Positions 1-25,093 are shown, numbered from the stretch's first letter. The stretch: DNA of 64,000 bases from Candidatus Nomurabacteria bacterium (GCA_023898465.1 CP060223.1:64001-128000), one strand, 5' to 3'. Notes: generated by a model not told the origin, from the sequence alone. Program-made: numbers and translations.

Positions 1-2
1 TT

Positions 3-3000
3 GGCACCGGCGCTTATGGATATGCTGGACTGAGTTTAGATGTGACGAATCCGGCGAATACATCTGTAAGTTTGGAAACTCGTACGTGCTCGGATGCTGG
101 ATGTGCTGGTGATGAAAACGATGCACATTGGAGTGATTGGGCAGAAGCGACCAGCACGCAAAGCCTTGGGAGCGTCACCTCATATACCGTTGCTTCCAGT
201 GTTGCGCAGTATGGTCAGGTTCGCATTCGCTTTGTGTCTGATCAACTCTATACCTCCAGCGTACATAGCCTTAGTTGGTCTTCGTATAGTGATGGAACTG
301 CACCAAATAATCCAAGCGCAGCTAGTGCGTATACTGATTCAGGCAAGACAACTGGAATCACGGACAATACTTGGACCGCTGAAACAACTCCGTATTTTGA
401 ATGGAGCTCCACAGATAATACCGGCGGTATAGGCGTACAGGGCGCTTATGTCTACTTTGGTACAAACAGCGCTCTTGATCCTGTCGACGATGCCGATGAT
501 GCAACGAACTTGGCCTATAAGAGTGGTACTAACTTCTATAACGCAAGTAGCGGAACAGTATCCTGGGATGCATCTACGCAGGCATCAGGATCCTTGAGCT
601 CTGGTACTTACTACCTCAAAGTAAAAACACAGGACTTTAATACAAATGTAACCGCATCGGCTGCATCTATCTTTACTTACAAAATTGATACACAGGTTCC
701 AACTGATCCAAGTGGTGTCTCAGCCGATCCAGCAGGATATACCTCGGTGAATAATTTTGACTTCTCTTGGACTGCTTCCTCCGACACACACTCAGGTGTG
801 ACTCAATATTGTTGGAAGACCGGGGACGTAGGCTCAACTGATACTTGTATCGATTCTAGCATAACAACGGTGACTGACATTCTGGCATATCAAACTCGTG
901 GCAATACCTTCTATGTTCGTGCCAAGGACAATGCGGGGAACTATTCTAACTACGCAACAACAACCTACTTCTATGCTGGTGATGCGCCGACGGAGCCGCT
1001 TACGCTTGTAGCCACTCCAACAACGGCTGAGAATACAAATGCCTTCTCATTCTCATGGAGCTTACCAAATACTTGTCTTGGCCGGACACCATGTCAGGCT
1101 GCTGACATTATTCGTTACTGTTATACGATTAACGAGTTGCCGAGTCAGGCAAACTGTGGCACAAATTTGGATGGCAACGCTACGCCAAGTCCGGACGGAG
1201 GATGGACCACGTCGACTCAGACATCTAATCGACTCTTGCCGGCCTTCTCAGCTGCGACTCAGCAGGATGTAAACACGCTCTACTTGGTAGCAGCTGATGC
1301 GATTAATAATATTGATTACGCGAATTACGCAGAAGTGAACTATACTTTCACTTCTACTGCCCCTGGACCTCCAGCCAGCTTGCAAGCAACTGACTCATCT
1401 GATCGGGCTAGCGAAGAATTTTCAACTACCTTAACTTGGAGCACGCCAAGCGATGTAGGGGACGGCGTTGAGTTATACAAAATTTATCGTTGTGACGAAA
1501 ATAGTACTGACTGTGATAATCCTTCATCAAGCGAAGATCCGCCAACCTATTACACCAATATCGCAAATACTACTACACGCGGTTATCTCGATGTTGAGCT
1601 AGATACGACCATTACTTATCGTTACTTTGTCCGGGCAATTGGGCCAGGTAATGCGCCGTCTGGTAATTCTGCTGTAGTAAGCATTAAGCCAGAGGGTAAG
1701 TTTGTGAATCCTCCACTCATTATTGGACAAGTATCAGCGGTGCCAAAGGTAACTACCGCTGAGATGGAGTGGTTGACCGCTGATGATGTAGGTACCGGTG
1801 GTGTTGTTATTCCTCACCCTGCTTCTTCCTTTGTTGAATATGGAGAAACTACCGCCTATGGTAACGAAACCGGTTCATCTGAATTGGTGAATGCGCACAG
1901 CGTGACTATAACCGGCTTAGCTGCTGATACCACCTATCATGCGCGGGCGTTCTGGATTGATGTCGATGGAAATCGTGGTGAGTCATCAGACTTTGAATTC
2001 ACTACCTTGGGCGCCCCATCTGCCCCAACAAACGTAACAGTAGATCCGACCACAAACACAGCAAATCGATTCACTTTCTCATGGGATGCACCAAGCGACG
2101 AAGGTATTGAGATTGGTGGGTATTTCTACTCAGTGAATACTTTGCCAAATGAAACGAATGCCAAGTTTACTGCGAACACCAGCGTGGGTCCGTTCCGAGC
2201 AGCTACTCAGCAGGATAAAAATACTTTCTACGTTGTGGCATCTGACACTTCAGCCAACGTCGATTTCGATAACTACGCTACGGTAGAATTTGAAGCACAT
2301 ACGACACCGCCTGAACCTCCGCTTAATCTCTTTATCGAAGACTCATCAAACCGTGATACTGAAAATTATCTCGCTACGCTGACCTGGTCCGAGCCGGGCA
2401 TTCCAACCAGTACAGGAGGTCTCGTTTCGAGTGAGGAAGTAGACGAGGAAATTTCTTACGAGGTGTATCGTAAAGCTGAAGGGGAGGATGACTTTAGTAA
2501 AATTGCTAGCGTCAGTTCAACCGCTTATCTTGATGCAGGACTAGAGGGTGGAAAAACATATGAGTATACTGTCACGGCAGCTGATTCGGCTGGTGCAACT
2601 TCAGACCAGGCTGAGGCGGTGGATGTCGTTCCAACTGGTCGCTACACAACACCGCCGGATATTACTCAGGGCCCAACAGTCACGGCTGATTCCTTTAGCG
2701 CCAAGGTAGAATGGGACACTGAACGTCCAACATCCTCATTCATAGAGTTTGGTCTCACAGCAGATTTAGGTGATGAGCAAGGCACCTCTGATCTTATTTC
2801 AGATCATAGTGTGATTGTTACTGGCTTGAAGCCTACTACAACATACTACTATCGCGTGAAGTCGATCGATATTGATGAAAACGTGGGCTATTCCAGCGTG
2901 GGTAGCTTTACTACCCTAGAGGCTCCGCGAGTGCTTGATGCAAAGATTAGTAACATACGTCTCTTTGACGCTACTATTACTTGGACCACCAACAAGGAAA

Positions 3001-3854
3001 CAACCACTGCCTTACAATATGGCACTACGACTAATTATGGATTTACAGTGAATGACACTAGTGGCTCATTTGCCTTCACACATACTTTGCAGCTACAAGG
3101 CTTGGCCGACGGCACGACATATAATGTCCAGTTAACCGGTACTGATCGTAGTGGAAATGCCGTCCAATCTGACAACTATGTATTTACTACGCTGACCTTC
3201 CCGCGCATCCTCAGCTTTGAAACTGAAAACAAAGCAGAGGGAGAGACTGAAGTTCGTTGGACTACCAATGTGCCAACTACTTCTCTCGTTGAGTACTATA
3301 ACGAAACAAGTCCGCCAAAAACACAAGGTAACACTGCCCTGGTGACTGATCACGCTATCCTCCTCTTTGGTCTCGAGGACGCTACAGTATACAACTATAC
3401 AATTCTCGGCGAAGATCAGTTTGGTAATAAGGTAGAGTCGGATGAAAATAATTTCCGTACCTTGGAAGATACCACGCCGCCAATTATTTCCAACGTAAAA
3501 GTAGAATCAAACACCATTGGTTCTGGTGAGGCTTCTCGTGTACAGATCATTGTTAGCTTCCGGACAAATGAACCCACCTCTACTCAAGTGCTCTATGGAC
3601 AGGGATCAGCAGGTACCACCCAAGAGACTGATGTAAATGGTGAGCTTGTGTATGATCATTTGATGGTTATTCAAGATCTTGATCCGGCGCGTACTTACGT
3701 CGTAAAAGCTGTGGCAGTTGATAAGGCCGGAAACGGTTCAGAGTCTGATGTGTACACTGTGTTGACGTCACGATCACGTGATTCCTTCCTCCAGCTTATC
3801 ATCGCCAACCTCGAAGACACCTTTGCCTGGCTCGGTAATTTGACTCCGGGTTAG
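3..3854 (+). CDS. giant FN3-repeat cell-surface protein (paralog 0), 5'-truncated by window edge; ends with conserved C-terminal tail
   Basis: The reading frame is open from nt 3, and the first in-frame GTG is at 42. There are multiple ~100-aa FN3-like repeats (TTPP...EW.T...YG...TTYYYRV). The C-terminus, RDSFLQLIIANLEDTFAWLGNLTPG, is homologous to the tails of the four downstream genes. Confidence 0.75.
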   Translation, partial: GTGAYGYAGLSLDVTNPANTSVSLETRTCSDAGCAGDENDAHWSDWAEATSTQSLGSVTSYTVASSVAQYGQVRIRFVSDQLYTSSVHSLSWSSYSDGTAPNNPSAASAYTDSGKTTGITDNTWTAETTPYFEWSSTDNTGGIGVQGAYVYFGTNSALDPVDDADDATNLAYKSGTNFYNASSGTVSWDASTQASGSLSSGTYYLKVKTQDFNTNVTASAASIFTYKIDTQVPTDPSGVSADPAGYTSVNNFDFSWTASSDTHSGVTQYCWKTGDVGSTDTCIDSSITTVTDILAYQTRGNTFYVRAKDNAGNYSNYATTTYFYAGDAPTEPLTLVATPTTAENTNAFSFSWSLPNTCLGRTPCQAADIIRYCYTINELPSQANCGTNLDGNATPSPDGGWTTSTQTSNRLLPAFSAATQQDVNTLYLVAADAINNIDYANYAEVNYTFTSTAPGPPASLQATDSSDRASEEFSTTLTWSTPSDVGDGVELYKIYRCDENSTDCDNPSSSEDPPTYYTNIANTTTRGYLDVELDTTITYRYFVRAIGPGNAPSGNSAVVSIKPEGKFVNPPLIIGQVSAVPKVTTAEMEWLTADDVGTGGVVIPHPASSFVEYGETTAYGNETGSSELVNAHSVTITGLAADTTYHARAFWIDVDGNRGESSDFEFTTLGAPSAPTNVTVDPTTNTANRFTFSWDAPSDEGIEIGGYFYSVNTLPNETNAKFTANTSVGPFRAATQQDKNTFYVVASDTSANVDFDNYATVEFEAHTTPPEPPLNLFIEDSSNRDTENYLATLTWSEPGIPTSTGGLVSSEEVDEEISYEVYRKAEGEDDFSKIASVSSTAYLDAGLEGGKTYEYTVTAADSAGATSDQAEAVDVVPTGRYTTPPDITQGPTVTADSFSAKVEWDTERPTSSFIEFGLTADLGDEQGTSDLISDHSVIVTGLKPTTTYYYRVKSIDIDENVGYSSVGSFTTLEAPRVLDAKISNIRLFDATITWTTNKETTTALQYGTTTNYGFTVNDTSGSFAFTHTLQLQGLADGTTYNVQLTGTDRSGNAVQSDNYVFTTLTFPRILSFETENKAEGETEVRWTTNVPTTSLVEYYNETSPPKTQGNTALVTDHAILLFGLEDATVYNYTILGEDQFGNKVESDENNFRTLEDTTPPIISNVKVESNTIGSGEASRVQIIVSFRTNEPTSTQVLYGQGSAGTTQETDVNGELVYDHLMVIQDLDPARTYVVKAVAVDKAGNGSESDVYTVLTSRSRDSFLQLIIANLEDTFAWLGNLTPG

Positions 3855-3991
3855 CGAGATAAGATAGGGTAAAAATCCTTTTTGGGTTTGAAAAAACTCA
3901 GAGTGTTTTGTTGTTGACGAAATGATGAAAATATATCAAAATAAAACGGTAGTTTAACTTTTCTTTACTGAAAGAAAAAGGGGGATTTGGC

Positions 3992-6900
3992 TTGAAGATT
4001 AGCCAAGGAAAGAAAAAACAGGACTGGAAGGCTAGAAAAAAGAGAAAGTCAGGAAGATTCAGCCTTTTCAGTAATTTTTTTCAGAAAAATCGACGTCGTC
4101 AGACTAAACTGGAGCAACCCCACAGCTTAAAGCCTGGGGCTGTTTTATTGCAGCTTTTTAGACAGACGCGACGTTACCGGGCTCAACAGCTTGTCTCTAT
4201 TAGTCTGGCAATTGTTTTGCTCTTGGCTTTTGGTTTTCAAATGTTTGTTGTAGCGGCGCCACCTGAAACTGCTTTTACGACGGTAAGCTCCGATGCTGAA
4301 TGGAATATGGGCACGCTTGAAGATGTCACTGTGAATAGTGGCAGCATTGAAATTTCTGGAGACGGGGGAGCTGGCTGGTTGAGTGGATGGCAAAATAGGC
4401 AGCCGGTCACAATTACCAATACCGGTTCAGCGCAGACAAACTATCAAGTAAGAGTTGATGTTACCTATGATGCCAAAATGCAGGCGGATTTTGATGATTT
4501 ACGTTTTGCAAAAGCTGATGGCACTGAGCTGGACTTTTGGCTGCAATCTAAAGTTGATTCTACCTCAGCCGTTGTTTGGGTGGAGGTGGATTCTTTGGCT
4601 GGATCGGGCGATACGGTGATCTACATGTATTACAATAATTCTGGCGCTTCGAGTACATCGGACGGAGCGGCGACTTTTCCTCTCTTTGATGATTTCAATG
4701 ATGCAAGTATAGACACGGGTAAATGGGTAGAAGTTGATCCCAGCTCAAAAATTGATGAATCAGCCGGATCGCTCCGTTTCCTTTACGGGTCTGGTAGTGG
4801 AGCATGGAATGCAAGTGTGTATGGCGTCACTTCTTTTACGCGGGCGGATTGGAGTTTTGAGTGGGATCAAACTTGGATTAGCGATTATAATCCATATGAC
4901 GCCTTCATGTTTGGCTGGAAAGATGATGGCGGAGCGGTAAGTTACACAAATCTCGTGTATGGCTACTACAATAGTGGGTCGGGTTTTTGTACAACGAACT
5001 GTACAGGGAATGTGTATGAAGATGGGAATAGTCGGGGAAATGCTGGAGTATGGGACAAAGATGTAACGTATAATCTGCGGGTTCGCATGCGAAGTGCTGG
5101 CGGAGCTTACTATGAAAAGAGTACAAACAATGGGGGATCATGGACAACCGATTATACAAGCACCTATTCAACTGAGGCTTCTCTTCATCCAGCCTGGATG
5201 CATTACGCAGGTGATTATTTGATTGATAATGTGCGGGTACGTAAATGGATGGCAAGCGAGCCAAGTCTTGTCTTTGGCACCGAAGAATCCGCCCTCCAAT
5301 CACCTGGGACCTACACCTCCCACAACCTTGATCTCCAGTATATCTACCAATGGGGAGACTGTGCCTCTGGCTGTAATGACTCTTCCACTGCCTTCACTAC
5401 CAACATCACGGTTCCCAGTAACACCTCAGTCCAGTTTGAACTCCGCCATTCAGCTGACGGCTCCACCAACTGGTCATCATGGACATCCCTGGCTACCTAC
5501 ACTACCTCTGGTACCAAAACGCTCACCCGAGGAGACCTAGTGGGTCTCATTGGTGATATCTTCAATCGTTATGTCCAAACTCGGATTACGCTGACCTCCT
5601 CAGATGGGAGTAGTAATCCTTCCATCGCTGACTACCGCTACGACTACACCAGAGAAACTGATCCGCCCAGTAATCCCAACACGCAGAATGGCTATGCCTC
5701 GAATGGAGGAGCAGCCATTACTTCAGGTAATTGGTACAACCATCCAGCTCCCTACTTCACCTGGAGTGGCGCCAGTGACACTGATGCTGGTATGTCCGGA
5801 GGCTACTCCGGCTACTGGGTCTGCTTTGGCACCTCATCCTGTGAACCTACCTCTGGTACCTTTGTGTCTTCCGCTGCCTACACGGCTGGGAGTCTCACTA
5901 CCAATACGACCTACTACCTCCGCATCAAAGCGAGAGATGCTGCCGGCAATGTGGCCACCTCAGCCTACGATGCCTTTACCTACAAATACGACGCCACCCC
6001 ACCAGCCAATCCCTCTGGTATCCTGCCTGATCCGGCTGGCTTTACCAATGTGAATGACTTTGACTTCACCTGGAATACCGGCTCCGATGCGGGTGGCTCT
6101 GGTATTGCTGAATACTGCTACAAGACCGGAGAAGATGGCTATGTCGAAACCTGTACCGCCTCCACCTCAGTCACGGGTATTACTGCCTACCAAGAAGGAG
6201 CCAATATCTTTTACGTGAGAAGTAAAGATATCGCTGGCAACCTCCCCACCTTCTACACCCAGGTCTCTTACTACTACTCTGCCAATGCGCCTTCACCACC
6301 GCAAGGACTCGAGGTGGACCCCACAGAGAACACGGCCAACTCCTTTACCTTTACCTGGCTACTTCCCGCCTCCTACTCCAATCCGATTGCCACCTACCAT
6401 TACTCGGTAAATGCCTTACCCACGGCAAGTAACACGACCGCAACGACCAACCTCAGTGTCGGTCCTGGTGCCTTTGCCACCCAACAAGGCACGAACATCT
6501 TCTATGTCGTCGCCAAAGACACCGCTGGCAACGTGGAATGGGACTCCTACGCTGCAGTTGAGTTCACCGCCAATACCACTGCTCCAGGTATTCCAACTGG
6601 TGTGACCCTGACAGACTCATCCATTCGGGCCCAGAACAAGTATTCCCTCACCCTCACCTGGGATGCTCCAGAGAACGAAGGCTCAGGTATTGATCACTAC
6701 GTCATTGACCGCTCAACCACTATCGGCTGCAGTGATGGTTCAGGTACCTGGGTCCAGCATGCCACCACCACCGCTGAAGGCTACTTTGATCCGAATCTTT
6801 CCAATACCACGACCTACTGCTACCGCGTGAAGGCAGCCGACAATGCCGGAGCCCAATCCGCCACCTCCTCTATTGTCTCCATGCGTCCAGAAGGCCGCTT

Positions 6901-7528
6901 CACTGAACCTCCAGAACTCATTGGCTCCCCAGGGGTTGAAGCCTACATCCAGTCGGCGACCGTCGAGTGGCTGACTGATCGCGAAGGCAGCTCCTTTGTG
7001 GAGTTTGGCACGTCCTCAGATACTCTTGATCGTGTCATGGGCCAAGACGACTTTGTGACCAGTCACAGTGTCACCCTCCTCGACCTTGATCCGGCTACTA
7101 CCTACTACTATCGTACGAAATACACTGACCAAGACAGTAATACCGGCTATTCTTCAGTCCTCTCCTTTACCACTGCTGATGCACCGTCAGCTCCGACCAA
7201 CCTCAGTGTGGACCCAGAGAGTAATACCCGAAACTCCTTTACCTTTGCCTGGGATCCCCCCAGTGATGCTGGAGTCACTATTCAAGGCTACTTCTACAGT
7301 GTGAATGATGTCCCCACCAGTACGAATACCTCCTTCACTGCTCAGCAAGAGCTTGGCCCTGGCGCATATGCCACGAGACAAGGGAGAACGTCTTCTACCT
7401 TGTCGCTATTGATGAAGGAACAATGTGAACTACGACAACTATGCTGCAGTCGCTTTCACTGCCACGACCCCCGCTCCTGCCATCCCCACCGGCCTCATCA
7501 TTACCGATGCCTCGAACCGAGAAACTGA
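3992..7528 (+). CDS. giant surface protein paralog 1, N-terminal 1178-aa part (basic tail + TM anchor, DUF2341-like, ConA/glucanase-like head, FN3 array); frame lost near 7381-7420
   Basis: A TTG start is preceded by the RBS aaaggggga. A K/R-rich N-terminus is followed by a hydrophobic helix. The motif W.NRQPVTI...DFDDLRFAKADGTELDFWLQ...VWVEV...IYMYYNN matches DUF2341, and FDDFND..IDTGKW opens a ConA-like domain, followed by FN3 repeats. The ORF stops after two 1-nt deletions (GGGG->GGG at ~7384, loss of c at ~7419) relative to the intact copy at 22700. Confidence 0.7.
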   Translation: MKISQGKKKQDWKARKKRKSGRFSLFSNFFQKNRRRQTKLEQPHSLKPGAVLLQLFRQTRRYRAQQLVSISLAIVLLLAFGFQMFVVAAPPETAFTTVSSDAEWNMGTLEDVTVNSGSIEISGDGGAGWLSGWQNRQPVTITNTGSAQTNYQVRVDVTYDAKMQADFDDLRFAKADGTELDFWLQSKVDSTSAVVWVEVDSLAGSGDTVIYMYYNNSGASSTSDGAATFPLFDDFNDASIDTGKWVEVDPSSKIDESAGSLRFLYGSGSGAWNASVYGVTSFTRADWSFEWDQTWISDYNPYDAFMFGWKDDGGAVSYTNLVYGYYNSGSGFCTTNCTGNVYEDGNSRGNAGVWDKDVTYNLRVRMRSAGGAYYEKSTNNGGSWTTDYTSTYSTEASLHPAWMHYAGDYLIDNVRVRKWMASEPSLVFGTEESALQSPGTYTSHNLDLQYIYQWGDCASGCNDSSTAFTTNITVPSNTSVQFELRHSADGSTNWSSWTSLATYTTSGTKTLTRGDLVGLIGDIFNRYVQTRITLTSSDGSSNPSIADYRYDYTRETDPPSNPNTQNGYASNGGAAITSGNWYNHPAPYFTWSGASDTDAGMSGGYSGYWVCFGTSSCEPTSGTFVSSAAYTAGSLTTNTTYYLRIKARDAAGNVATSAYDAFTYKYDATPPANPSGILPDPAGFTNVNDFDFTWNTGSDAGGSGIAEYCYKTGEDGYVETCTASTSVTGITAYQEGANIFYVRSKDIAGNLPTFYTQVSYYYSANAPSPPQGLEVDPTENTANSFTFTWLLPASYSNPIATYHYSVNALPTASNTTATTNLSVGPGAFATQQGTNIFYVVAKDTAGNVEWDSYAAVEFTANTTAPGIPTGVTLTDSSIRAQNKYSLTLTWDAPENEGSGIDHYVIDRSTTIGCSDGSGTWVQHATTTAEGYFDPNLSNTTTYCYRVKAADNAGAQSATSSIVSMRPEGRFTEPPELIGSPGVEAYIQSATVEWLTDREGSSFVEFGTSSDTLDRVMGQDDFVTSHSVTLLDLDPATTYYYRTKYTDQDSNTGYSSVLSFTTADAPSAPTNLSVDPESNTRNSFTFAWDPPSDAGVTIQGYFYSVNDVPTSTNTSFTAQQELGPGAYATRQGRTSSTLSLLMKEQCELRQLCCSRFHCHDPRSCHPHRPHHYRCLEPRN

Positions 7529-8999
7529 AGACTACTCTATTGCCTTGAAGTGGAAAGCAGTGACCACTGAACAAGCCGGTAGCCTGGAAGATGACGCGGT
7601 GACCTACGAGATTCTCCGTTCCACTGATGGAGACAGCTTCTCCACCGTGGCCAACATTACCTCGACTGGCTACCTGGACGTCGATCTCGACAATACGACG
7701 GAGTATTACTACCAAGTGAAAGCCAAAGACTCCGCCGGCGCTGCTTCAGCTCCTTCGACCACCGTCTCAGATATCCCTGAGGGGAGATATACCACTCCAC
7801 CGGAGATTACCAAAGCCCCCCACGTTACTCCTTCCAGCTTCTCAGCCAAGGTAGAGTGGAGTACTGGACGGCCAACTACCTCCTTTGTTCAATTTGGCAC
7901 TAACCCCGCCTCATTAACAGAAGAGCAGGGTACTTCAAACCTTATCGCTGACCACGAGGTAACCATTGAGGGTTTGCAGCCTGAAACTACGTATTCATAT
8001 AGAGTAAAAAGTGTTGATGTGGATGGAAACATTTCACATTCAAGTGTTGCTACATTTACCACCCAGGCTGCTCCACGTGTTTCAAATGTAGGCATCAGCG
8101 ACGTACGTTTATTTGATGCTCTCATTAGCTGGGAAACAAATAAAGCGACCACAACTTCACTTGAGTATGGCACCACCACGAACTATGGTACAACGGTGAG
8201 CGATGCAACAGGATCAACTACCACATCTCATTTATATAAGTTAGAGAATTTGCAAGATGACACGCTCTACCATCTTCGTTTCCGTGGCGTTGATGCAGAA
8301 GGGACGCAAGTTAGTTCCGACGACTACACCTTCACCACCCTGACTTTCCCCCGGGTCGAGAACATCACCTGGGCTAATCAAGCCGAAGGCGAGACCGAAG
8401 TGCAATGGACTACGAATGTCCCCACCACCTCCCAAGTGGAATATTACAACGAAACTACTCCAGCCAAGACCCAAGGTAATACGGTCCTGACCACGGAACA
8501 CTCCGTCCTCCTCTTTGGCCTCGACGATGCCACCATTTACCAATTCCAAGTCCGAGGCACTGACCAATTTGGCTACGAAGCCATCTCAGATGAGCAAGAG
8601 TTCCGTACCCTGGAAGATACTACCCCTCCAGTCGTGAGTAATGTGCAGGTAGAGTCCAATACCATTGGCTCAGGTGAGCTCTCTCGTGTGCAGATCATTG
8701 TCCGCTGGACCACCAATGAGCCTACCTCTTCTCAAGTCCGCTTTGGTGAAGGAAATAACCTTTCCTCTGAATCAGATGTGAACCCAGAGTTAGTCTATGA
8801 TCACCTCCTTGTCGTCTCAGACCTAGAACCAGCGAGAACCTACAATATTCAAGCTATTGCCGTCGACAAAGCAGGGAATAGTACTGACTCTGATACCTAC
8901 CGAGTGCTTACCACCCGTCGGAGAGATTCCTTCCTCCAACTGGTCATTGGCAACCTGGAAGACACCTTTGCCTGGTTTACTAATATTGGAGGACTCTGA
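7425..8999 (+). CDS. C-terminal continuation of paralog 1 (FN3 repeats + conserved C-terminal tail) in shifted frame
   Basis: It translates as ...YDNYAAVAFTATTPAPAIPTGLIITDASNRETE..., collinear with residues ~1190-1712 of the intact paralog 4. It ends in ...RRRDSFLQLVIGNLEDTFAWFTNIGGL. Confidence 0.65.
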   Translation: MNYDNYAAVAFTATTPAPAIPTGLIITDASNRETEDYSIALKWKAVTTEQAGSLEDDAVTYEILRSTDGDSFSTVANITSTGYLDVDLDNTTEYYYQVKAKDSAGAASAPSTTVSDIPEGRYTTPPEITKAPHVTPSSFSAKVEWSTGRPTTSFVQFGTNPASLTEEQGTSNLIADHEVTIEGLQPETTYSYRVKSVDVDGNISHSSVATFTTQAAPRVSNVGISDVRLFDALISWETNKATTTSLEYGTTTNYGTTVSDATGSTTTSHLYKLENLQDDTLYHLRFRGVDAEGTQVSSDDYTFTTLTFPRVENITWANQAEGETEVQWTTNVPTTSQVEYYNETTPAKTQGNTVLTTEHSVLLFGLDDATIYQFQVRGTDQFGYEAISDEQEFRTLEDTTPPVVSNVQVESNTIGSGELSRVQIIVRWTTNEPTSSQVRFGEGNNLSSESDVNPELVYDHLLVVSDLEPARTYNIQAIAVDKAGNSTDSDTYRVLTTRRRDSFLQLVIGNLEDTFAWFTNIGGL

Positions 9000-12268: not shown

Positions 12269-12279
12269 TGAAGGAGTAG

Positions 12280-13563: not shown

Positions 13564-13632
13564 CCAATTTGGCTACGAAGCCATCTCAGATGAGCAAGAG
13601 TTCCGTACCCTGGAAGATACTACCCCTCAGTC

Positions 13633-14036: not shown

Positions 14037-14065
14037 TTGACTAAATCAAGGAAAAATTTTACAAT
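14037..14065 (+). promoter_or_regulatory. sigma70-like promoter for paralog 3 (TTGACT-N17-TACAAT)
   Basis: The sequence is ttgact aaatcaaggaaaaattt tacaat. It lies 50 nt upstream of the TTG start context at 14112. Confidence 0.45.
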
Positions 14066-17400: not shown

Positions 17401-17597
17401 AGAGTAATACCCAGAAACTCCTTTACCTTTGCCTGGGATCCCCCAGTGATGCTGGAGTCACTATTCAAGGCTACTTCTACAGTGTGAATGATGTCCCCCA
17501 CCAGTACGAATACCTCCCTTCACTGCTCAGCAAGAGCTTGGCCCTGGCGCATATGCCACGAGACAAGGGAGAACGTCTTCTACCTTGTCGCTATTGA
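14424..17597 (+). CDS. giant surface protein paralog 3, main fragment (DUF2341-like, LamG_3-like head, FN3 array); N-terminal leader 14112-14424 disrupted, frame lost near 17413-17520
   Basis: Upstream, 14112 carries the same TTG-AAG-ATT-AGC-CAA start context as gene 1 but is broken at A/T homopolymers, and a tt insertion at ~14425 (ggcaccttTTgagcg) cuts the frame. The body contains DUF2341 and LamG_3 motifs. Its shared module is near-identical to paralogs 1, 2 and 4. Confidence 0.7.
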   Translation: MSDVTVNSGSIEISGDGGANWIAESGWQFRQQLTFDASSLSAPVANMPIMVHISASNTDYWGEVTSRDETRFGDSDGTALDFHFEKFDDANDDAIAWVEVPQVDNADTDSIYLYYGNDAATNGEDGAGTYDNDGNFQGVWHMNNATSTTISDSTGHGYTGTKGASTAAPTQVNGQIGYAQSFDGGDYIDFGNVLNPGSNDWTVEIWFKTTSNGSPSSRILYNKENLYEAAAAGSSYHDYAWQPHWAWDGGTAFSVTNNVWHLSGTTYDKSKQRLYKNGVLVYNRDQGGVMGTTTSRLQFGARGDTGHSSFYIGEIDEVRMSSTARSADWLALAHLSETDTLISTWGSEESALQSPGTYTSHNLDLQYIYQWGDCASGCNDSSTAFTTNITVPSNTSVQFELRHSADGSTNWSSWTSLATYTSSGTKTLTRGEMVTLVGDIFNRYVQTRITLSSSDGSSNPSIADYRYDYTRETDPPSNPNTQNGYASNGGAAITSGNWYNHPAPYFTWSGASDTDAGMSGGYSGYWVCFGTSSCEPTSGTFVSSAAYTAGSLTTNTTYYLRIKARDAAGNVATSAYDAFTYKYDATPPANPSGILPDPAGFTNVNDFDFTWNTGSDAGGSGIAEYCYKTGEDGYVETCTASTSVTGITAYQEGANIFYVRSKDIAGNLPTFYTQVSYYYSANAPSPPQGLAVDPTENTANSFTFTWLLPASYSNPIATYHYSVNALPTASNTTATTNLSVGPGAFATQQGTNIFYVVAKDTAGNVEWDSYAAVEFTANTTAPGIPTGVTLTDSSIRAQNKYSLTLTWDAPENEGSGIDHYVIDRSTTIGCSDGSGTWVQHATTTAEGYFDPNLSNTTTYCYRVKAADNAGAQSATSSIVSMRPEGRFTEPPELIGSPGVEAYIQSATVEWLTDREGSSFVEFGTSSDTLDRVMGQDDFVTSHSVTLLDLDPATTYYYRTKYTDQDSNTGYSSVLSFTTADAPSAPTNLSVDPESNTQKLLYLCLGSPSDAGVTIQGYFYSVNDVPHQYEYLPSLLSKSLALAHMPRDKGERLLPCRY

Positions 17598-18051
17598 TGA
17601 AGCGAACAATGTGAACTACGACAACTATGCTGCAGTCGCTTTCACTGCCACGACCCCTGCTCCTGCCATCCCCACCGGCCTCATCATTACCGATGCCTCG
17701 AACCGAGAAACTGAAGACTACTCTATTGCCTTGAAGTGGAAAGCAGTGACCACTGAACAAGCCGGTAGCCTGGAAGATGATGCGGTGACCTACGAGATTC
17801 TCCGTTCCACTGATGGAGACAGCTTCTCCACCGTGGCCAACATTACCTCGACTGGCTACCTGGATGTCGATCTCGACAATACGACGGAGTATTACTACCA
17901 AGTGAAAGCCAAAGACTCCGCCGGCGCTGCTTCAGCTCCTTCGACCACCGTCTCAGATATCCCTGAGGGAGATATACCACTCCACCGGAGATTACCAAAG
18001 CCCCCACGTTACTCCTTCCAGCTTCTCAGCCAAGGTAGAGTGGAGTACTGA
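17488..18051 (+). CDS. paralog 3 fragment (FN3 repeat) between frameshifts
   Basis: The portion from ~17570 on reads ENVFYLVAIDEANNVNYDNYAAVAFTATTPAPAIPTGLIITD..., collinear with the other copies. It is flanked by homopolymer indels (acccAgaaac, C6->C5, C insertions at 17495-17520, loss of g at ~17970). Confidence 0.5.
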   Translation: MMSPTSTNTSLHCSARAWPWRICHETRENVFYLVAIDEANNVNYDNYAAVAFTATTPAPAIPTGLIITDASNRETEDYSIALKWKAVTTEQAGSLEDDAVTYEILRSTDGDSFSTVANITSTGYLDVDLDNTTEYYYQVKAKDSAGAASAPSTTVSDIPEGDIPLHRRLPKPPRYSFQLLSQGRVEY

Positions 18052-18244
18052 CCGTGATGCTGATTCCCACGTAGAATATGGCAGCACCTCAGATCTCACT
18101 GAAGAGCAAGGGACGATTGATGAAACTGATGAACATAGCATCCAACTCGAAGGACTCCAACCAGAAACGACCTATTACTACCGTATTCGTTCACGTGACC
18201 AAGATGGCAATGTAGCCCTCTCGAGCATCACTACCTTTACTACC

Positions 18245-19180
18245 TTGGAGGCACCGAGGGTGTCGGATGTGGTCATTTCTGATATCAAACTTTACGATGC
18301 GCTTATTGCGTGGAAAACAAACAAGGCAACAACAACGGTTTTGGAATATGGTACGACTGAGCAATACGGCCAAAGTCTCGCAGATACTTCTGGGTCCCTT
18401 ACCACGAACCATATTGTGAAGCTTGATAGCTTAACCGATGATACACTGTATCATTTCCGTCCTACTGGTTTCGACGAGAGCGGGAATGCTCCAGAGAGTA
18501 GCGACTACACCTTCACCACCCTGACCTTCCCCCGGGTCGAGAACATCACCTGGGCTAATCAAGCCGAAGGCGAGACCGAAGTGCAATGGACTACCAATGT
18601 CCCCACCACCTCCCAAGTGGAATACTACAACGAAACTACTCCAGCCAAGACCCAAGGTAATACGGTCCTGACCACGGAACACTCCGTCCTTCTCTTTGGC
18701 CTCGACGATGCCACCATTTACCAATTCCAAGTCCGAGGCACTGACCAATTTGGCTACGAAGCCATCTCAGATGAGCAAGAGTTCCGTACCCTGGAAGATA
18801 CTACCCCCCCAGTCGTGAGTAATGTGCAGGTAGAGTCCAATACCATTGGCTCAGGTGAGCTCTCTCGTGTGCAGATCATTGTCCGCTGGACCACCAATGA
18901 GCCTACCTCTTCCCAAGTCCGCTTTGGTGAAGGAAATAACCTTTCCTCTGAATCAGATGTGAACCCAGAGTTAGTCTATGATCACCTCCTTGTCGTCTCA
19001 GACCTAGAACCAGCGAGAACCTACAATATTCAGGCTATTGCCGTTGACAAAGCAGGGAATAGTACTGACTCTGATACCTACCGAGTGCTTACCACCCGTC
19101 GGAGAGATTCCTTCCTCCAACTGGTCATTGGCAACCTGGAAGACACCTTTGCCTGGTTTACCAATATTGGGGGGTTGTGA
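18245..19180 (+). CDS. paralog 3 C-terminal fragment (FN3 repeats + conserved tail)
   Basis: The collinear in-frame region starts at about 18010 (after the stop ending ORF 17488..18051) and ends in ...RRRDSFLQLVIGNLEDTFAWFTNIGGL. Its stop overlaps the next start (gTGATGa). Confidence 0.6.
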   Translation: MEAPRVSDVVISDIKLYDALIAWKTNKATTTVLEYGTTEQYGQSLADTSGSLTTNHIVKLDSLTDDTLYHFRPTGFDESGNAPESSDYTFTTLTFPRVENITWANQAEGETEVQWTTNVPTTSQVEYYNETTPAKTQGNTVLTTEHSVLLFGLDDATIYQFQVRGTDQFGYEAISDEQEFRTLEDTTPPVVSNVQVESNTIGSGELSRVQIIVRWTTNEPTSSQVRFGEGNNLSSESDVNPELVYDHLLVVSDLEPARTYNIQAIAVDKAGNSTDSDTYRVLTTRRRDSFLQLVIGNLEDTFAWFTNIGGL

Positions 19181-22100
19181 TGAGTCGACGGATGCGACAT
19201 TTTAGCGTAGGACATAAAGGATTAACTCCGAGAGTAAGTCGGAAAAACTCACGTCATTCAAAATTATCACGATATAAGTCAAGATATCACGTTCAAGTTA
19301 TTCTCACCTTGACGGTTCTTGTTTTTGCTTCAGTGTTTGGGGTAGCTATTCCATACCTACAAGCGGTTCCAACAAATAATACCGAGACCTTTACGCTGAG
19401 TAGCGATTTTAGTGGAGGGGTATTAACTGATGTTGATGTGAGTAATGACGAAATTAAACTGTCTGGAGGAGCGGAAAATTGGTGGGACGCAAACTATCAA
19501 TATCGTCGACAACTTACGGTTACAAATGATTCTGCTGGAACTGCTGAAGTAGGCACAACAGCTACCATCAGCATTGATACTTCGGCGCTTGAGACAGCAG
19601 GGAAGTTGCGTTCAGATCGTAATGACTGGCGAGTAGTATATTGGAACGGCTCGAGTAATGAAGAGCTTGATCGTGTCTACGAAAGTACTAGTTCGACTGT
19701 TTTTGCTATTCAGGCCACTATCGCGGGAAGTGGTGGATCAAGTAGTGATTATTATGTGTACTACGGGTACTCAAGTGAGTCCTCAACTCCGCCAAGTACG
19801 GTGGGTAACGTAAAGACGGTACTCAGCATGCATACAACCGCTAACCAAGTTTTAACAAGTGGAGTTACAAACCTTGGTATTGCTACTGACGGTGACTACG
19901 TTTACATGTCAAATGGGTCTCAGTTATCAAAACTTAACCTTGATGGGTCATTAGTTGGCACTAAGACAGTGAGTATTGGTGGTGCAAATAGAGGACTCGG
20001 TTTTGCTGATGGACGGGTTATTGGTCGAGACTTAAGTAATAATCTTTATGCGTATGACTGGGATAGCTCAACATTATCTCCATTGAGTATTCCAGGTGGA
20101 CATCCACTTTTATCAGGTCAATCCTGGATGAATCATAATCTTGTGACTGATTCGAGCGATCGGATTGGTACCGTGCAGTATGCATCTGGCGGTATGATTC
20201 TGCGTCGCTACACTATTAGTGGTAACACGCTCACTTGGTTAGATGATATCACCCTAGGTGGAACCTATCACTCAGTAGATAATCATGGCTTTACTATGAG
20301 CAACGACTATCTCGTAATGGTGAGTTATAGTGATGGATGGCGACGATGGAGCTTGCCTGATGGTACAGAGGAAGTTGACTTTGGGAATTTTGGCGGGACT
20401 GGTACAAATACTGAAACTCACCCTAGTGGGATGTCGAATCCAACTTTTATTGATTATAACTGGAAGACCGGGGAAATATATCTTGGTGACTATAGTTCAG
20501 CTGAGTATTTTCGATATGCTAATGAAGCTTTAGTTACTTCTCCTACTTTATCTGTTACTGATGGAGGTGAAGTTGGATCACTTACTCCTATTGGTACCTT
20601 TGCTTCAAATCAAACTGATACAGGGGATGACGCATTTATAAATCTTGCTCGCATCTTTGCCTGGGGGAGTGGTGGCGGTGATAGTGATACAGCATTTACC
20701 GCAAACGTAACGATGAGCGATCCTTCTCATTCGACACTTAGCTTTGAGCTACGTAGTGCTTCATCTATTGCTAATCTAGCGTCAGCAACATATTACTCAC
20801 TTGGCTCGCCAACGAGCTCTGGTGCATATACGCTGACCAAAGGACAGATGGATGCTTTAAATAGTGGAAGCGGGGTTTTACCCTCCAGTGTGAATAAGTA
20901 TTTTCAGTTACGCATTTCATTTACCTCAAGTGATGGCTTAGCCAACCCTTCAGTGCAGGATTTTGCTTTTCATTATCAGGAAGACAACGACGCCCCATCA
21001 CCACCATCGCCGGTTAACGGAGCTGGGTATGATGAAGAGGGTGGAGATGTCATCTCTCAAACTACCTGGTATAACTACCCAACTCCATACTTTACTTGGG
21101 ATGATGCCATAGATGGAGATTCTAGTATTGATGGGTATTATGTTTGCTTTGGAACTAGCAGTTGCGATCCAAGCGCTGGTTCCTATGTGACTACTGCAGA
21201 GTATACTGCAGTGTCGTTAACAAGCAATCAAAAGTATTCTTTACGAGTGAAGGCTCGTGACACTGCTGGGAATGTTTCTGCAACCTTCTCGGTATTTGAA
21301 TATTGGTACGACGCCACCCCACCAGCCAATCCCTCTGGTATCCTGCCTGATCCGGCTGGCTTTACCAATGTGAATGACTTTGACTTCACCTGGAATACCG
21401 GCTCCGATGCGGGTGGCTCTGGTATTGCTGAATACTGCTACAAGACCGGAGAAGATGGCTATGTCGAAACCTGTACCGCCTCCACCTCAGTCACGGGTAT
21501 TACTGCCTACCAAGAAGGAGCCAATATCTTTTACGTGAGAAGTAAAGATATCGCTGGCAACCTCCCCACCTTCTACACCCAGGTCTCTTACTACTACTCT
21601 GCCAATGCGCCTTCACCACCGCAAGGACTCGAGGTGGACCCCACAGAGAACACGGCCAACTCCTTTACCTTTACCTGGCTACTTCCCGCCTCCTACTCCA
21701 ATCCGATTGCCACCTACCATTACTCGGTAAATGCCTTACCCACGGCAAGTAACACGACCGCAACGACCAACCTCAGTGTCGGTCCTGGTGCCTTTGCCAC
21801 CCAACAAGGCACGAACATCTTCTATGTCGTCGCCAAAGACACGGCTGGCAACGTGGAATGGGACTCCTACGCTGCAGTTGAGTTCACCGCCAATACCACT
21901 GCTCCAGGTATTCCAACTGGTGTGACCCTGACAGACTCATCCATTCGGGCCCAGAACAAGTATTCCCTCACCCTCACCTGGGATGCTCCAGAGAACGAAG
22001 GCTCAGGTATTGATCACTACGTCATTGACCGCTCAACCACTATCGGCTGCAGTGATGGTTCAGGTACCTGGGTCCAGCATGCCACCACCACCGCTGAAGG

Positions 22101-24318
22101 CTACTTTGATCCGAATCTTTCCAATACCACGACCTACTGCTACCGCGTGAAGGCAGCCGACAATGCCGGAGCCCAATCAGCGACCTCTTCTATTGTTTCC
22201 ATGCGTCCAGAAGGCCGCTTCACTGAACCCCCAGAACTCATTGGCTCCCCAGGGGTTGAGGCCTACATCCAGTCGGCCACCGTCGAGTGGCTGACTGATC
22301 GCGAAGGCAGCTCCTTTGTGGAGTTTGGCACTGCTGCAGATACCCTTGATCGCATCATGGGCCAAGATGACTTTGTGACGAGTCACAGTGTCACCCTCCT
22401 CGATCTTGAGCCAGCCACCACCTACTACTATCGTACGAAATACACTGACCAAGACAGTAATACCGGCTATTCTTCAGTCCTCTCCTTTACCACTGCTGAT
22501 GCACCGTCAGCTCCGACCAACCTCAGTGTGGACCCAGAGAGTAATACCCGAAACTCCTTTACCTTTGCCTGGGATCCCCCCAGTGATGCTGGAGTCACTA
22601 TTCAAGGCTACTTCTACAGTGTGAATGATGTCCCCACCAGTACGAATACCTCCTTCACTGCTCAGCAAGAGCTTGGCCCTGGCGCATATGCCACGAGACA
22701 AGGGGAGAACGTCTTCTACCTTGTCGCTATTGATGAAGCGAACAATGTGAACTACGACAACTATGCTGCAGTCGCTTTCACTGCCACGACCCCCGCTCCT
22801 GCCATCCCCACCGGCCTCATCATTACCGATGCCTCGAACCGAGAAACTGAAGACTACTCTATTGCCTTGAAGTGGAAAGCAGTGACCACTGAACAAGCCG
22901 GTAGCCTGGAAGATGACGCGGTGACCTACGAGATTCTCCGTTCCACTGATGGAGACAGCTTCTCCACCGTGGCCAACATTACCTCGACTGGCTACCTGGA
23001 CGTCGATCTCGACAATACGACGGAGTATTACTACCAAGTGAAAGCCAAAGACTCCGCCGGCGCTGCTTCAGCTCCTTCGACCACCGTCTCAGATATCCCT
23101 GAGGGGAGATATACCACTCCACCGGAGATTACGAAGGGTCCAAATGTAACCCCGGATTCATTTGAAGCAGGCATTGCCTGGGAAACCGATCGAGACGCAG
23201 ACTCGCATGTTGAGTACGGGACGAATTCTTCTTTAGGGGAGGAACAGGGTACAATCGATGAGACTGACGATCATTCCGTCCAACTCGAAGGACTCCAACC
23301 AGAAACGACTTATTACTATCGCATTCGTTCACGTGACCAAGATGGCAATGTAGCCCTCTCGAGCATCACTACCTTTACTACCTTGGAGGCACCTTTTGTT
23401 TCTGAAGTGCTTGTCTCAGATATTCGCCTCTATGATGCATATATTAATTGGACAACAAATAAAGCGACCACAACTTCACTTGAGTATGGTACTACGACTG
23501 GTTATGGACAGACTATTACTGACACTTCAGGATCACTCACAACAACCCATACCGTACATTTAGAGAATTTAACTGACGATACCACATACAATTTTAAGCC
23601 AACAGGAGTGGATATTACTGGCAATAACCCGGCGAGTGGTAACTACACCTTCACCACCCTGACCTTCCCCCGGGTCGAGAACATCACCTGGGCTAATCAA
23701 GCCGAAGGCGAGACCGAAGTGCAATGGACTACCAATGTCCCCACCACCTCCCAAGTGGAATATTACAACGAAACTACTCCAGCCAAGACCCAAGGTAATA
23801 CGGTCCTGACCACGGAACACTCCGTCCTTCTCTTTGGCCTCGACGATGCCACCATTTACCAATTCCAAGTCCGAGGCACTGACCAATTTGGCTACGAAGC
23901 CATCTCAGATGAGCAAGAGTTCCGTACCCTGGAAGATACTACCCCTCCAGTCGTGAGTAATGTGCAGGTAGAGTCCAATACCATTGGCTCAGGTGAGCTC
24001 TCTCGTGTGCAGATCATTGTCCGCTGGACCACCAATGAGCCTACCTCTTCCCAAGTCCGCTTTGGTGAAGGAAATAACCTTTCCTCTGAATCAGATGTGA
24101 ACCCAGAGTTAGTCTATGATCACCTCCTTGTCGTCTCAGACCTAGAACCAGCGAGAACCTACAATATTCAGGCTATTGCCGTTGACAAAGCAGGGAATAG
24201 TACTGACTCTGATACCTACCGAGTGCTTACCACCCGTCGGAGAGATTCCTTCCTCCAACTGGTCATTGGCAACCTGGAAGACACCTTTGCCTGGTTTACC
24301 AATATTGGGGGGTTTTAA
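19180..24318 (+). CDS. giant surface protein paralog 4, intact (~1712 aa): basic tail + TM anchor, DUF2341-like, unique ~550-aa head (repetitive, propeller-like), shared FN3 module, conserved C-terminal tail
   Basis: The ATG at 19180 overlaps the upstream TGA (an in-frame GTG lies at 19177). The frame is uninterrupted. N-terminal motifs are NYQYRRQLTV...DWRVVYWNG...YYVYYGY. The region 21300-22700 is ~identical to the other copies. Confidence 0.8.
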   Translation: MSRRMRHFSVGHKGLTPRVSRKNSRHSKLSRYKSRYHVQVILTLTVLVFASVFGVAIPYLQAVPTNNTETFTLSSDFSGGVLTDVDVSNDEIKLSGGAENWWDANYQYRRQLTVTNDSAGTAEVGTTATISIDTSALETAGKLRSDRNDWRVVYWNGSSNEELDRVYESTSSTVFAIQATIAGSGGSSSDYYVYYGYSSESSTPPSTVGNVKTVLSMHTTANQVLTSGVTNLGIATDGDYVYMSNGSQLSKLNLDGSLVGTKTVSIGGANRGLGFADGRVIGRDLSNNLYAYDWDSSTLSPLSIPGGHPLLSGQSWMNHNLVTDSSDRIGTVQYASGGMILRRYTISGNTLTWLDDITLGGTYHSVDNHGFTMSNDYLVMVSYSDGWRRWSLPDGTEEVDFGNFGGTGTNTETHPSGMSNPTFIDYNWKTGEIYLGDYSSAEYFRYANEALVTSPTLSVTDGGEVGSLTPIGTFASNQTDTGDDAFINLARIFAWGSGGGDSDTAFTANVTMSDPSHSTLSFELRSASSIANLASATYYSLGSPTSSGAYTLTKGQMDALNSGSGVLPSSVNKYFQLRISFTSSDGLANPSVQDFAFHYQEDNDAPSPPSPVNGAGYDEEGGDVISQTTWYNYPTPYFTWDDAIDGDSSIDGYYVCFGTSSCDPSAGSYVTTAEYTAVSLTSNQKYSLRVKARDTAGNVSATFSVFEYWYDATPPANPSGILPDPAGFTNVNDFDFTWNTGSDAGGSGIAEYCYKTGEDGYVETCTASTSVTGITAYQEGANIFYVRSKDIAGNLPTFYTQVSYYYSANAPSPPQGLEVDPTENTANSFTFTWLLPASYSNPIATYHYSVNALPTASNTTATTNLSVGPGAFATQQGTNIFYVVAKDTAGNVEWDSYAAVEFTANTTAPGIPTGVTLTDSSIRAQNKYSLTLTWDAPENEGSGIDHYVIDRSTTIGCSDGSGTWVQHATTTAEGYFDPNLSNTTTYCYRVKAADNAGAQSATSSIVSMRPEGRFTEPPELIGSPGVEAYIQSATVEWLTDREGSSFVEFGTAADTLDRIMGQDDFVTSHSVTLLDLEPATTYYYRTKYTDQDSNTGYSSVLSFTTADAPSAPTNLSVDPESNTRNSFTFAWDPPSDAGVTIQGYFYSVNDVPTSTNTSFTAQQELGPGAYATRQGENVFYLVAIDEANNVNYDNYAAVAFTATTPAPAIPTGLIITDASNRETEDYSIALKWKAVTTEQAGSLEDDAVTYEILRSTDGDSFSTVANITSTGYLDVDLDNTTEYYYQVKAKDSAGAASAPSTTVSDIPEGRYTTPPEITKGPNVTPDSFEAGIAWETDRDADSHVEYGTNSSLGEEQGTIDETDDHSVQLEGLQPETTYYYRIRSRDQDGNVALSSITTFTTLEAPFVSEVLVSDIRLYDAYINWTTNKATTTSLEYGTTTGYGQTITDTSGSLTTTHTVHLENLTDDTTYNFKPTGVDITGNNPASGNYTFTTLTFPRVENITWANQAEGETEVQWTTNVPTTSQVEYYNETTPAKTQGNTVLTTEHSVLLFGLDDATIYQFQVRGTDQFGYEAISDEQEFRTLEDTTPPVVSNVQVESNTIGSGELSRVQIIVRWTTNEPTSSQVRFGEGNNLSSESDVNPELVYDHLLVVSDLEPARTYNIQAIAVDKAGNSTDSDTYRVLTTRRRDSFLQLVIGNLEDTFAWFTNIGGF

Positions 24319-25090: not shown

Positions 25091-25093
25091 AGT

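Follow-up and report, generated by a model that had tools for sequence, protein, structure and literature searches.

The window analysed here is a stretch of 64,000 nucleotides (nt) from 'Candidatus Nomurabacteria' (GCA_023898465.1, CP060223.1:64001-128000) that carries an array of giant modular protein genes followed by the two genes of an ATP-binding cassette (ABC) transporter. Positions 1-24318 are filled by five co-oriented giant coding units, U0 to U4, all on the plus strand like the other array features described below. Five such genes had been proposed by the initial annotation, made from the sequence by a model, although the first of them is cut by the window start. Of U0 (1..3854), a giant paralogue that begins upstream of the window, only the 1283 C-terminal codons are present; its frame is open from base 3, and the fn3 (72 bits) and Pur_ac_phosph_N (80 bits) families of Pfam were found in it. 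In blastn comparisons U0 resembled U1-U4 over its last 600 nt only, with about 67% nucleotide identity. U1 (3992..8999) encodes a tail, a hydrophobic helix, a DUF2341 domain, an orphan domain, a pre-stalk region, 11 FN3-like modules and a terminal helix. The plan of U2 (8999..13998) is the same with a DUF2341 plus Laminin_G_3 head, and U3 (14112..19180) combines a U1-like leader with the U2-like DUF2341 plus Laminin_G_3 head. U4 (19177..24318, 1713 amino acids) is the sole intact full-length open reading frame (ORF) of the array. It reads as a DUF2341-like domain of divergent sequence, a possibly beta-propeller-like head and a pre-stalk domain, followed by 11 FN3-like modules and the terminal helix, and is 100% identical to a database protein (P0001, GenBank USN53612.1) of a 'Candidatus Nomurabacteria' metagenome-assembled genome (MAG) with a contig of 1,082,586 bp.

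The units are tightly packed. U1 and U2 overlap by 1 nt, the U2 start overlapping the U1 stop codon, and U3 and U4 overlap by 4 nt. Spacers of 137 nt (3855-3991) and 113 nt (13999-14111) precede U1 and U3, and each contains a promoter-like site, identified by consensus match only: TTGACG-17-CAAAAT at 3914..3942 (9/12) and TTGACT-17-TACAAT at 14037..14065 (10/12). With one such site in each spacer, the layout resembles two two-gene units behind U0. We also noted an inverted repeat at 14105-14128, a stem-loop (TTTTGGCTTGAAGATTAGCCAAAA) that encloses the TTG start codon of U3 and, as a consensus-level match only, could occlude it. A resembling sequence occurs at the U1 start (3986-4006).

Each of U1-U4 begins with a tail of 32-69 residues containing 11-21 lysines or arginines, followed by a strongly hydrophobic 19-mer helix and an AxA-like motif, in agreement with the basic tail and single hydrophobic helix described earlier. 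The helix would be either a Sec signal peptide or a signal anchor. Behind it, DUF2341 (PF10102; gathering cutoff 23.4 bits) was recognized in U1 (91.2 bits, E=6e-26), U2 (49.8 bits, 5e-13) and U3 (54.3 bits, 1.9e-14). The Laminin_G_3 heads assigned to copies 2 and 3 were likewise recovered, since PF13385 (cutoff 27.6 bits) matched U2 with 69.4 bits (4.9e-19) and U3 with 57.3 bits (2.5e-15). The N-terminal domain of U4 gave no Pfam match even at E≤5; profile-profile alignment with hhalign nevertheless identified it as a divergent DUF2341-like domain (96.9% probability, E=1.7e-10, against a profile of the DUF2341 region), so that a DUF2341-like domain, as claimed for the copies, is present in U1-U4.

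Two head assignments were not borne out. The second head domain of U1, about 210 residues with an FDDF..W motif, had been called ConA/glucanase-like. It matched no Pfam family at E≤5 and no PDB sequence at E≤10 in a profile search, its hhalign probability against a LamG profile was 0.2%, and the AlphaFold model of the U1 head (mean predicted local distance difference test score, pLDDT, 38) was unusable. The ConA-like identity is thus unconfirmed, the motif resemblance being a lead only. One homologue of this domain, P0082, was found in a word-indexed search, and the domain also recurs in P0109. The head of U4, in turn, had been taken as unique. Its N-terminal part is DUF2341-like, as described above, and the orthologues P0002 (from WWE3), P0003 and P0004 share the head region at 44-45% identity. 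The rest of this head had no Pfam match at E≤5. Its structure model was of low confidence (mean pLDDT 54.7, with residues 180-340 at 70-90), and the Foldseek matches listed for it were mostly beta-propellers with template modelling (TM) scores of 0.2-0.4. This hints that the U4 head may be a beta-propeller of the Kelch/NHL/WD40-like kind.

The FN3-like repeat stalk of the initial annotation was borne out. In U4, 11 FN3-like modules of 92-127 residues are delimited by Pro-rich linkers, and Pfam scans gave fn3 (PF00041) with 118 bits over five stretches and Pur_ac_phosph_N (PF16656) with 109 bits over four. The last two FN3-like domains together with a helix of about 25 residues (RRRDSFLQLVIGNLEDTFAWFTNIGG) form a terminal module at 23640..24318, with counterparts at 8321-8999 (U1), 13320-13998 (U2) and 18502-19180 (U3). 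Over these terminal nucleotides, about 670-680 nt, U1-U4 are 98.4-98.8% identical in blastn alignments, close to the shared 700 bp reported before. The terminal module is the most conserved part of the family, and the identity between U0 and U4 peaks there. All five units end in RRRDSFLQLVIGNLEDTFAWFTNIGG or a close variant, following the pattern S-[FIV]-[LI]-Q-[LI]-[IV]-[IV]-x-N-[LF]-E-x-x-F-x-W. With a mean Kyte-Doolittle value of 0.5-1.0 over the last 18 residues, this helix is too polar for a transmembrane segment. A search for known C-terminal sorting or secretion signals returned only sub-threshold FN3-level matches in NCBIfam, and no LPXTG motif was visible in the C-terminal sequences; no match placed the array proteins in the LPXTG, PEP-CTERM, MYXO-CTERM or type IX secretion system C-terminal domain classes.

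Comparison of the four stalks revealed a mosaic. A homogenized tract at 5282..7866 in U1 has its counterparts at 10286-11890 plus 12469-13082 in U2, 15465-18264 in U3 and 21307-23135 in U4. The tract is C-rich at third codon positions (C3 0.41-0.47 versus 0.16-0.30 in copy-specific sequence). By blastn, U1 and U3 are 97.6% identical over 2589 nt (5282-7866 versus 15465-18050), and U1 and U4 98.6% over 1829 nt (5987-7813 versus 21307-23135), U4 joining the shared tract only at 21307, which corresponds to 5987 in U1. A block of about 2 kb had been described as essentially identical in four copies. Near-identical tracts exist, but all four copies share them only over about 0.9 kb, a further 0.35 kb and the terminal module. 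U2 carries an island of its own (11890..12470) with 60-72% nucleotide and 80-88% protein identity to the version in U1, U3 and U4. There, the proportions of synonymous (pS) and non-synonymous (pN) differences are 0.91 and 0.12, GC is 0.43, C3 is 0.16 and codon usage is typical of the genome; two of the U2 indels described below lie inside it. Besides the heads, the copies differ in a second region of about 1.5 FN3 modules at 23136..23639 in U4 (counterparts at 7867-8320, 13083-13319 and 18265-18501), with 48-70% nucleotide identity and a ratio of non-synonymous to synonymous change (dN/dS) of 0.11-0.34.

Sliding identity resolved this pattern into sharp blocks in which the outlier copy changes from block to block. 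The outlier is U4 in the pre-stalk, U2 at 11890-12470 and U1 at 7867-8080 (U1 coordinates); over the following 240 nt or so all four copies differ, and in the terminal module all four are near-identical. A Sawyer-type run test was significant for all six pairs of U1-U4 (p≤0.0005), and five of the seven major breakpoints fell within 7 residues of an FN3 linker, for which we estimate a chance of about 14% per breakpoint. Gene conversion among the ancient paralogues U1-U4, suggested in the initial annotation as an ongoing process, is thus well supported.

The converted sequence has a composition of its own. Every homogenized tract shows a C3 of 0.39-0.47 and a GC content at third positions of 0.54-0.62, while the copy-specific tracts, U0 and the neighbouring genes have a C3 of 0.16-0.30. 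Relatives with a locus GC of 0.50-0.59 show matching C3-rich usage in this module, and a single, possibly introgressed allele seems to have been distributed among the paralogues. Plain GC-biased gene conversion is doubtful as the cause of the shift and fits poorly, because C3 alone rises and G3 does not. A diversity-generating retroelement was also considered and rejected: the differences between near-identical modules are almost all synonymous, and no reverse transcriptase was found among the 30 window ORFs scanned, some small ORFs lying outside that scan.

A second source of sequence touches the last array position. The short-read scaffold L003 (ENA ERZ28655665, 2875 bp), which corresponds to 22329-25203 of the window, joins a U4-identical block to a U2-identical variable block (both 100%), with the terminal module and the ABC gene behind them. 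Either the assembly took a chimeric path through the repeats or the scaffold represents a genuine recombinant.

The conversion tracts lie in genes that are themselves old. Synonymous sites are saturated in the heads and in several stalk blocks (pS 0.64-0.92), and two units have closer relatives outside the array than within it: U0 is 55% identical over 1315 residues to residues 503-1799 of P0116, and U1 shares 51% identity with P0109 across more than 1100 residues, head included. The units are therefore old paralogues, and the recent duplication put forward earlier is not supported. By its resemblance to P0116, whose first 500 residues look like the Kelch-type repeat heads of homologues, U0 is predicted to be of the Kelch-headed type. 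The same observations bear on whether an assembler might have unrolled one or two real genes into five. Near-identical modules of 0.7-2.6 kb pose difficulties for assembly, one end of an independent short-read contig (L002) falls 34 nt within the U4 terminal module, and indel noise is concentrated in the middle copies. However, the array has four different heads and several blocks saturated at synonymous sites, U0 and U1 have their 51-55% identical orthologues elsewhere, the U2/U3 and U4 head types recur elsewhere too, tandem arrays of this kind occur in independent MAGs, and L003 shows at least two different variable blocks in short reads. We consider such an assembly expansion highly improbable.

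The initial annotation had not noticed that three of the five genes are frameshifted. Alignment of the four stalks revealed 17 frame-breaking indels in U1-U3: two 1-nt deletions in U1 (7383 and 7417), five indels in U2 (12183, 12279, 13508, 13546 and 13627) and about ten in U3 (14267, 14342, 14424, 17413, 17439, 17495, 17516, 17568, 17966 and 18000), three of the latter in leader T runs. Short base runs (C5/C6, G3/G4, T6/T7) hold many of the indels, and others lie outside runs, among them 7417, 17413 and the 2-nt events at 12279 and 13508. With the indels removed, stop-free frames of 1669 (U1), 1667 (U2) and 1689 (U3) amino acids are restored. Among the single-base changes that a frameshifted copy alone carries, 15 are synonymous and 1 is non-synonymous, and differences in the shared modules are synonymous to non-synonymous as 25 to 1 between U1 and U3 and 26 to 4 between U1 and U2, which is purifying selection. 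Indels are about as numerous as private substitutions and nonsense changes are absent. Because of this synonymous bias, in shared modules and private changes alike, and the lack of nonsense change, the indels read as consensus errors or as extremely recent events. L003 contains none of the indels of the window. On this basis, we regard the indels as likely assembly consensus errors rather than gene decay.

Several observations weigh against such errors. The frameshifts are restricted to U1-U3, and the other 40 kb of the window look clean: the genes for sigma-70, DnaG, GroEL and PEP synthase are full length by their domain matches, and L002 is 100% identical to the window over 24285-35090 (10.8 kb). 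Copy-specific sequence, in which short-read polishing should be effective, holds five of the 17 indels, and we consequently rejected polishing that fails solely inside repeats as their full cause. No U0-U3 protein occurs in the public protein set, which fits pseudogene annotation. When the U3 head was used to look for an intact, almost identical protein from short-read assemblies, no close match emerged, and no paper citing the read set SRR12358676, the source of a 100% identical contig, was found in the literature.

If the indels are not errors, they could be real slipped-strand changes in short homopolymers that switch the copies off and on. Their frequent location in the C, G and T runs and their restriction to surface-protein genes would suit such phase variation. 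Yet the runs are short, several indels lie outside them, U3 would need about ten simultaneous off-switches, and the rest of the window holds 199 runs of at least 5 bases without damage to the four full-length genes named above. Phase variation thus seems very unlikely.

Alternatively, U4 and perhaps one more copy could be expressed, with U1-U3 as true pseudogene donors, as in the pilE/pilS or vlsE systems. Frameshifts found in U1-U3 only, five of them in copy-specific sequence, next to a clean 40-kb flank, the evident gene-conversion tracts and the lack of U0-U3 proteins in the public set all speak for silent cassettes; the U4-like/U2-like join of L003, which lies directly upstream of the ABC gene, could represent a recombinant variant of an expression site, and antigenic variation in giant Patescibacteria proteins has been speculated about (PMC11809585). 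The array does share clustered surface-protein paralogues and copied tracts with Neisseria pilE/pilS, Borrelia vlsE and Mycoplasma MgPar. In contrast to those systems, its copies are full length with their own start, signal helix and head rather than promoterless and truncated, no single expression site is evident, and the converted tracts are the conserved stalk and terminal parts instead of the variable ones, so that it does not fit the pilS/vls type. The 15 to 1 ratio of synonymous to non-synonymous private changes, and indels about equal in number to private substitutions without any nonsense change, are unlike pseudogene decay, and L003 may be a chimeric short-read path through identical repeats. 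We therefore regard silent cassettes as improbable and keep to consensus errors. The consequence is practical: four of the five array genes have no entry in public protein sets, probably as residual indels led annotation pipelines to treat them as pseudogenes.

Directly downstream of the array lies an ABC transporter that the initial annotation, in its account of function, had missed, although it is the strongest functional clue at the locus. An ATPase gene of the LolD/MacB/FtsE-like kind (24368..25090, plus strand; ABC_tran, 2.8e-31, 109 bits) starts 50 nt past the U4 stop (24318). It is followed on the same strand by a MacB/LolC-type permease gene (25094..26314) encoding an extracytoplasmic MacB_PCD domain (1.2e-19, 71.8 bits) and an FtsX transmembrane domain (6.5e-22, 78.3 bits). 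With an ATPase and a MacB_PCD/FtsX permease, all above cutoff, the pair belongs to the type VII ABC superfamily (MacB/LolCDE/FtsEX). The closest NCBIfam families were LolD for the ATPase (2.2e-62) and, in a full-length match, LolCE for the permease (3.2e-21), both below the equivalog cutoff. Scores fell short of the cutoffs for all three systems proper, with 210 versus 308 for LolD, 186 versus 265 for FtsE, 76 versus 362 for LolCE, 81 versus 966 for MacB and 35-37 versus 225-255 for FtsX. Further downstream there are a dehydrogenase gene and unrelated genes; no membrane-fusion or TolC genes were seen among them. A few genes past the pair, the ORF at 28991-29536 matches Host_attach (PF10116) and baeRF_family12.

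To see how far this arrangement extends, we turned to relatives of the terminal module. A search with its 229 residues gave matches to 8293 cluster representatives at E≤0.001 and to 1155 at E≤1e-30. Among the 150 best library matches, at least 72 carry the terminal helix at their end, in proteins of 700-6300 residues; others among these 150 are unrelated FN3 proteins with different C-terminal tails. A contig scan with U4 alone as query found no relative. Species-representative genomes scanned with an alignment of the terminal modules yielded 298 relatives, and the best 80 of these matches gave 75 related loci. These stem overwhelmingly from MAGs titled Patescibacteria group, Kerfeldbacteria, WWE3 or Saccharibacteria. 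Eleven (L008, L012, L017, L023, L028, L051, L052, L068, L071, L074 and L078) carry the cassette under the titles 'uncultured Gammaproteobacteria', 'Pseudomonadales' or 'Coxiellaceae'; the proteobacterial titles of these MAG records are probably wrong, through binning or naming errors.

In 64 of the 75 related loci, the next gene downstream of the terminal module, on the same strand, encodes an ATPase homologue, and in 62 the permease comes after it. Counted by module, 67 of 93 have the ATPase gene as their same-strand downstream neighbour, a median of 51 nt away; for most of the others, the next gene is another giant or no ABC pair lies in the fetched flank. This synteny spans lineages whose terminal modules are only 33-65% identical. 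Among the closest relatives, a single Kelch-headed giant gene with the ABC pair behind it is the most frequent arrangement; some loci insert DUF2341-type genes between the two, as here, and in three loci (L043, L054 and L075) the whole unit of giant gene, ATPase and permease is duplicated in tandem. Our window shows the same cassette: a two-FN3 terminal module ending in a helix, followed by ATPase and permease on the same strand. Since the synteny is kept across such divergence, it points to a working partnership, and the giant proteins and the Lol/MacB-type pair are probably partners.

Multiplication of the giant gene is not peculiar to this genome. Fifteen of 74 related loci have at least two co-oriented copies, mostly 66-84% identical. 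In a WWE3 MAG (GCA_020429745.1, L001 15219-24476), three tandem paralogues with Kelch, DUF2341 and U4-type heads are mutually 64-71% identical at the nucleotide level. Arrays with a Kelch-type gene followed by DUF2341-type genes exist in other Patescibacteria, too. The WWE3 array adjoins type IV pilus genes on the opposite strand (pilin-like N_methyl proteins, PilM, T2SSF and T2SSE). In the Saccharibacteria locus L061, tandem copies (5878-6540 versus 10001-10687) are 99.8% identical over 411 nt; near-identity of this kind indicates that homogenization of the module is not confined to the genome studied here.

The giant proteins could also be an ordinary adhesin family that is Sec-exported and held by its N-terminal helix, with the ABC pair as an unrelated efflux or Lol-like neighbour. 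All copies do carry N-terminal Sec-type signals, and no known C-terminal sorting or secretion signal was recognized. The WWE3 array has no ABC pair in its fetched flank, and in Southlakia epibionticum a MacB-type pair (SEML1_0053/0054) stands without a giant gene beside it. LolCDE/MacAB-type transporters have moreover been noted as general 'defence' genes in Saccharibacteria (PMC7427843). An unrelated neighbour does not explain, however, why order, strand and the median 51-nt spacing are held in 64 of 75 loci despite terminal modules only 33-65% identical, why giant gene and ABC pair were duplicated together in three loci, or why the module adjoining the transporter is the most conserved part of the proteins. 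We consider adhesins without a tie to the transporter unlikely.

We thus favour, with some confidence, a conserved Patescibacteria cassette of one or more giant modular surface proteins and a same-strand Lol/MacB-type (type VII) ABC transporter, which has expanded to five giant genes here. Apart from the WWE3 and Southlakia cases, other points count against this explanation. Synteny is what links the transporter to the giant proteins. The topology of the N-termini was read from hydropathy and motif only, both head structure models (U1 and U4) are of low confidence, and the 75 loci, drawn from the best 80 of 298 matches, are biased toward this subtype of the terminal module. SEML1_0890, an essential FN3 protein in the Southlakia transposon sequencing tables, was examined as a possible family member and rejected, as it is a different protein of 195 residues.

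Known systems offer partial parallels. Large FN3/DUF2341/concanavalin-like surface proteins of Patescibacteria (candidate phyla radiation, CPR) have been proposed as host-adhesion factors (PMC11809585, PMC13059738, PMC12911398), and domain reshuffling by homologous recombination was speculated on for giant surface proteins of this phylum (PMC11809585). In Southlakia, FN3-domain and lectin-like envelope proteins, different from those of the array, are essential for epibiotic growth (PMC10633639). U1-U4 resemble the giant surface proteins of those reports in phylum-level source, size class, domain set and presumed attachment role; the conserved C-terminal module, the array with its conversion tracts and the link to an ABC transporter do not appear in them. 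Among the database homologues of the U3 head are proteins named MshQ at their source, prepilin-type proteins and ExbB fusions of about 600 residues. The U2/U3 head is the same domain pair as in these DUF2341 plus LamG proteins of type IV pilus (MshQ) or ExbB context, yet Pfam scans found neither a pilin-type N-terminus (PF07963) nor a MotA/ExbB domain (PF01618) in U1-U4, and the head here sits on an 11-module FN3 stalk.

In type I secretion, LapA with LapBCE and SiiE combine a long repetitive adhesin and a conserved C-terminal element with an adjoining gene for a dedicated ABC transporter. The array proteins are likewise long and repetitive, with a conserved C-terminal element and an adjoining ABC pair. 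In contrast to LapA and SiiE, they have N-terminal Sec-type signals, and the transporter fold is that of MacB/LolC, not HlyB. No repeats-in-toxin (RTX) family was among the matches reported by the Pfam and NCBIfam scans and no type I secretion C-terminal signal was recognized, which places the array outside RTX/type I secretion. Patescibacteria are also generally considered to lack an outer membrane. Transporters of the FtsEX/LolCDE type grip a helix of an extracellular partner or pull a membrane-embedded anchor from the bilayer. FtsEX-PcsB/EnvC/CwlO and LolCDE share the architecture found here, a separate ATPase and a permease with four transmembrane helices and a large extracytoplasmic domain. 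By analogy, the terminal or the N-terminal helix of the giant proteins would be a fitting target for either action. The pair of the window differs in scoring below every equivalog cutoff, and its putative partner would be an FN3 protein of 1700-2900 residues.

Beyond the cassette, the window changes character. Positions 32700-43600 have 53-58% GC versus 43-48% elsewhere and contain seven ORFs of about 400-590 amino acids that have no Pfam match and carry signal- or lipobox-like N-termini (FGCAGGS, GAFGCQK and GLYGCAQE); an ORF at 43019-43600 has a TonB_C domain. Such features are typical of outer-membrane bacteria and odd for a Patescibacteria genome. The junction between low and high GC near 32700 was confirmed by the independent short-read contig L002. 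Just before it, the ORFs 31372-31962 (with a TSP3_bac repeat) and 31865-32728 overlap on the same strand and might represent a single frameshift-split gene; L002 is identical across 31372-32728 and its gene calls also show two genes.

Taken together, the proteins follow a common plan of basic tail, hydrophobic helix, head, pre-stalk, about 11 FN3-like modules and an invariant C-terminal module with a short helix. The heads (DUF2341 plus a LamG, orphan or putative beta-propeller domain) probably bind different ligands on host cells. Stretches of stalk and the whole terminal module have been overwritten between copies by gene conversion that ends mostly at FN3 linkers. The shared terminal module may work with the single downstream transporter in docking, membrane release or mechanical actuation; as judged from FtsEX partners and LolCDE, the transporter might keep hold of the C-terminal helix, pull out the N-terminal one or set the protein in motion. 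If one transporter serves five substrates, the identity of the terminal module in all copies would be accounted for. We propose more tentatively, as a possibility that we hold with less than even confidence, a phylum-wide surface machine in which giant FN3 proteins are handled by a dedicated Lol/MacB-type ABC transporter, and in which an introgressed C3-rich allele keeps the transporter-facing module identical while the heads stay different. The initial annotation saw variable heads shuffled onto a conserved stalk. The architecture agrees with this, but the heads are old lineages and not recently shuffled parts; a surface-variation repertoire is possible.

A search of the literature found no description of the terminal module, of domain-wise conversion or of a link between giant proteins and a MacB-type ABC transporter, and the cassette hypothesis is new as far as we could find. 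Domain-wise concerted evolution is clearly exemplified by this array. Short-read MAGs probably contain too few of such cases, since their contigs tend to end at the identical modules; L002 begins 34 nt inside the U4 terminal module, the very point where a short-read assembler would break. How ultrasmall Patescibacteria recognize and hold their hosts is largely unexplained beyond type IV pili. A giant, head-variable FN3 family that is genetically tied to a mechanotransmission-type ABC transporter in Kerfeldbacteria-like bacteria, Saccharibacteria and others is a testable candidate for an attachment apparatus.

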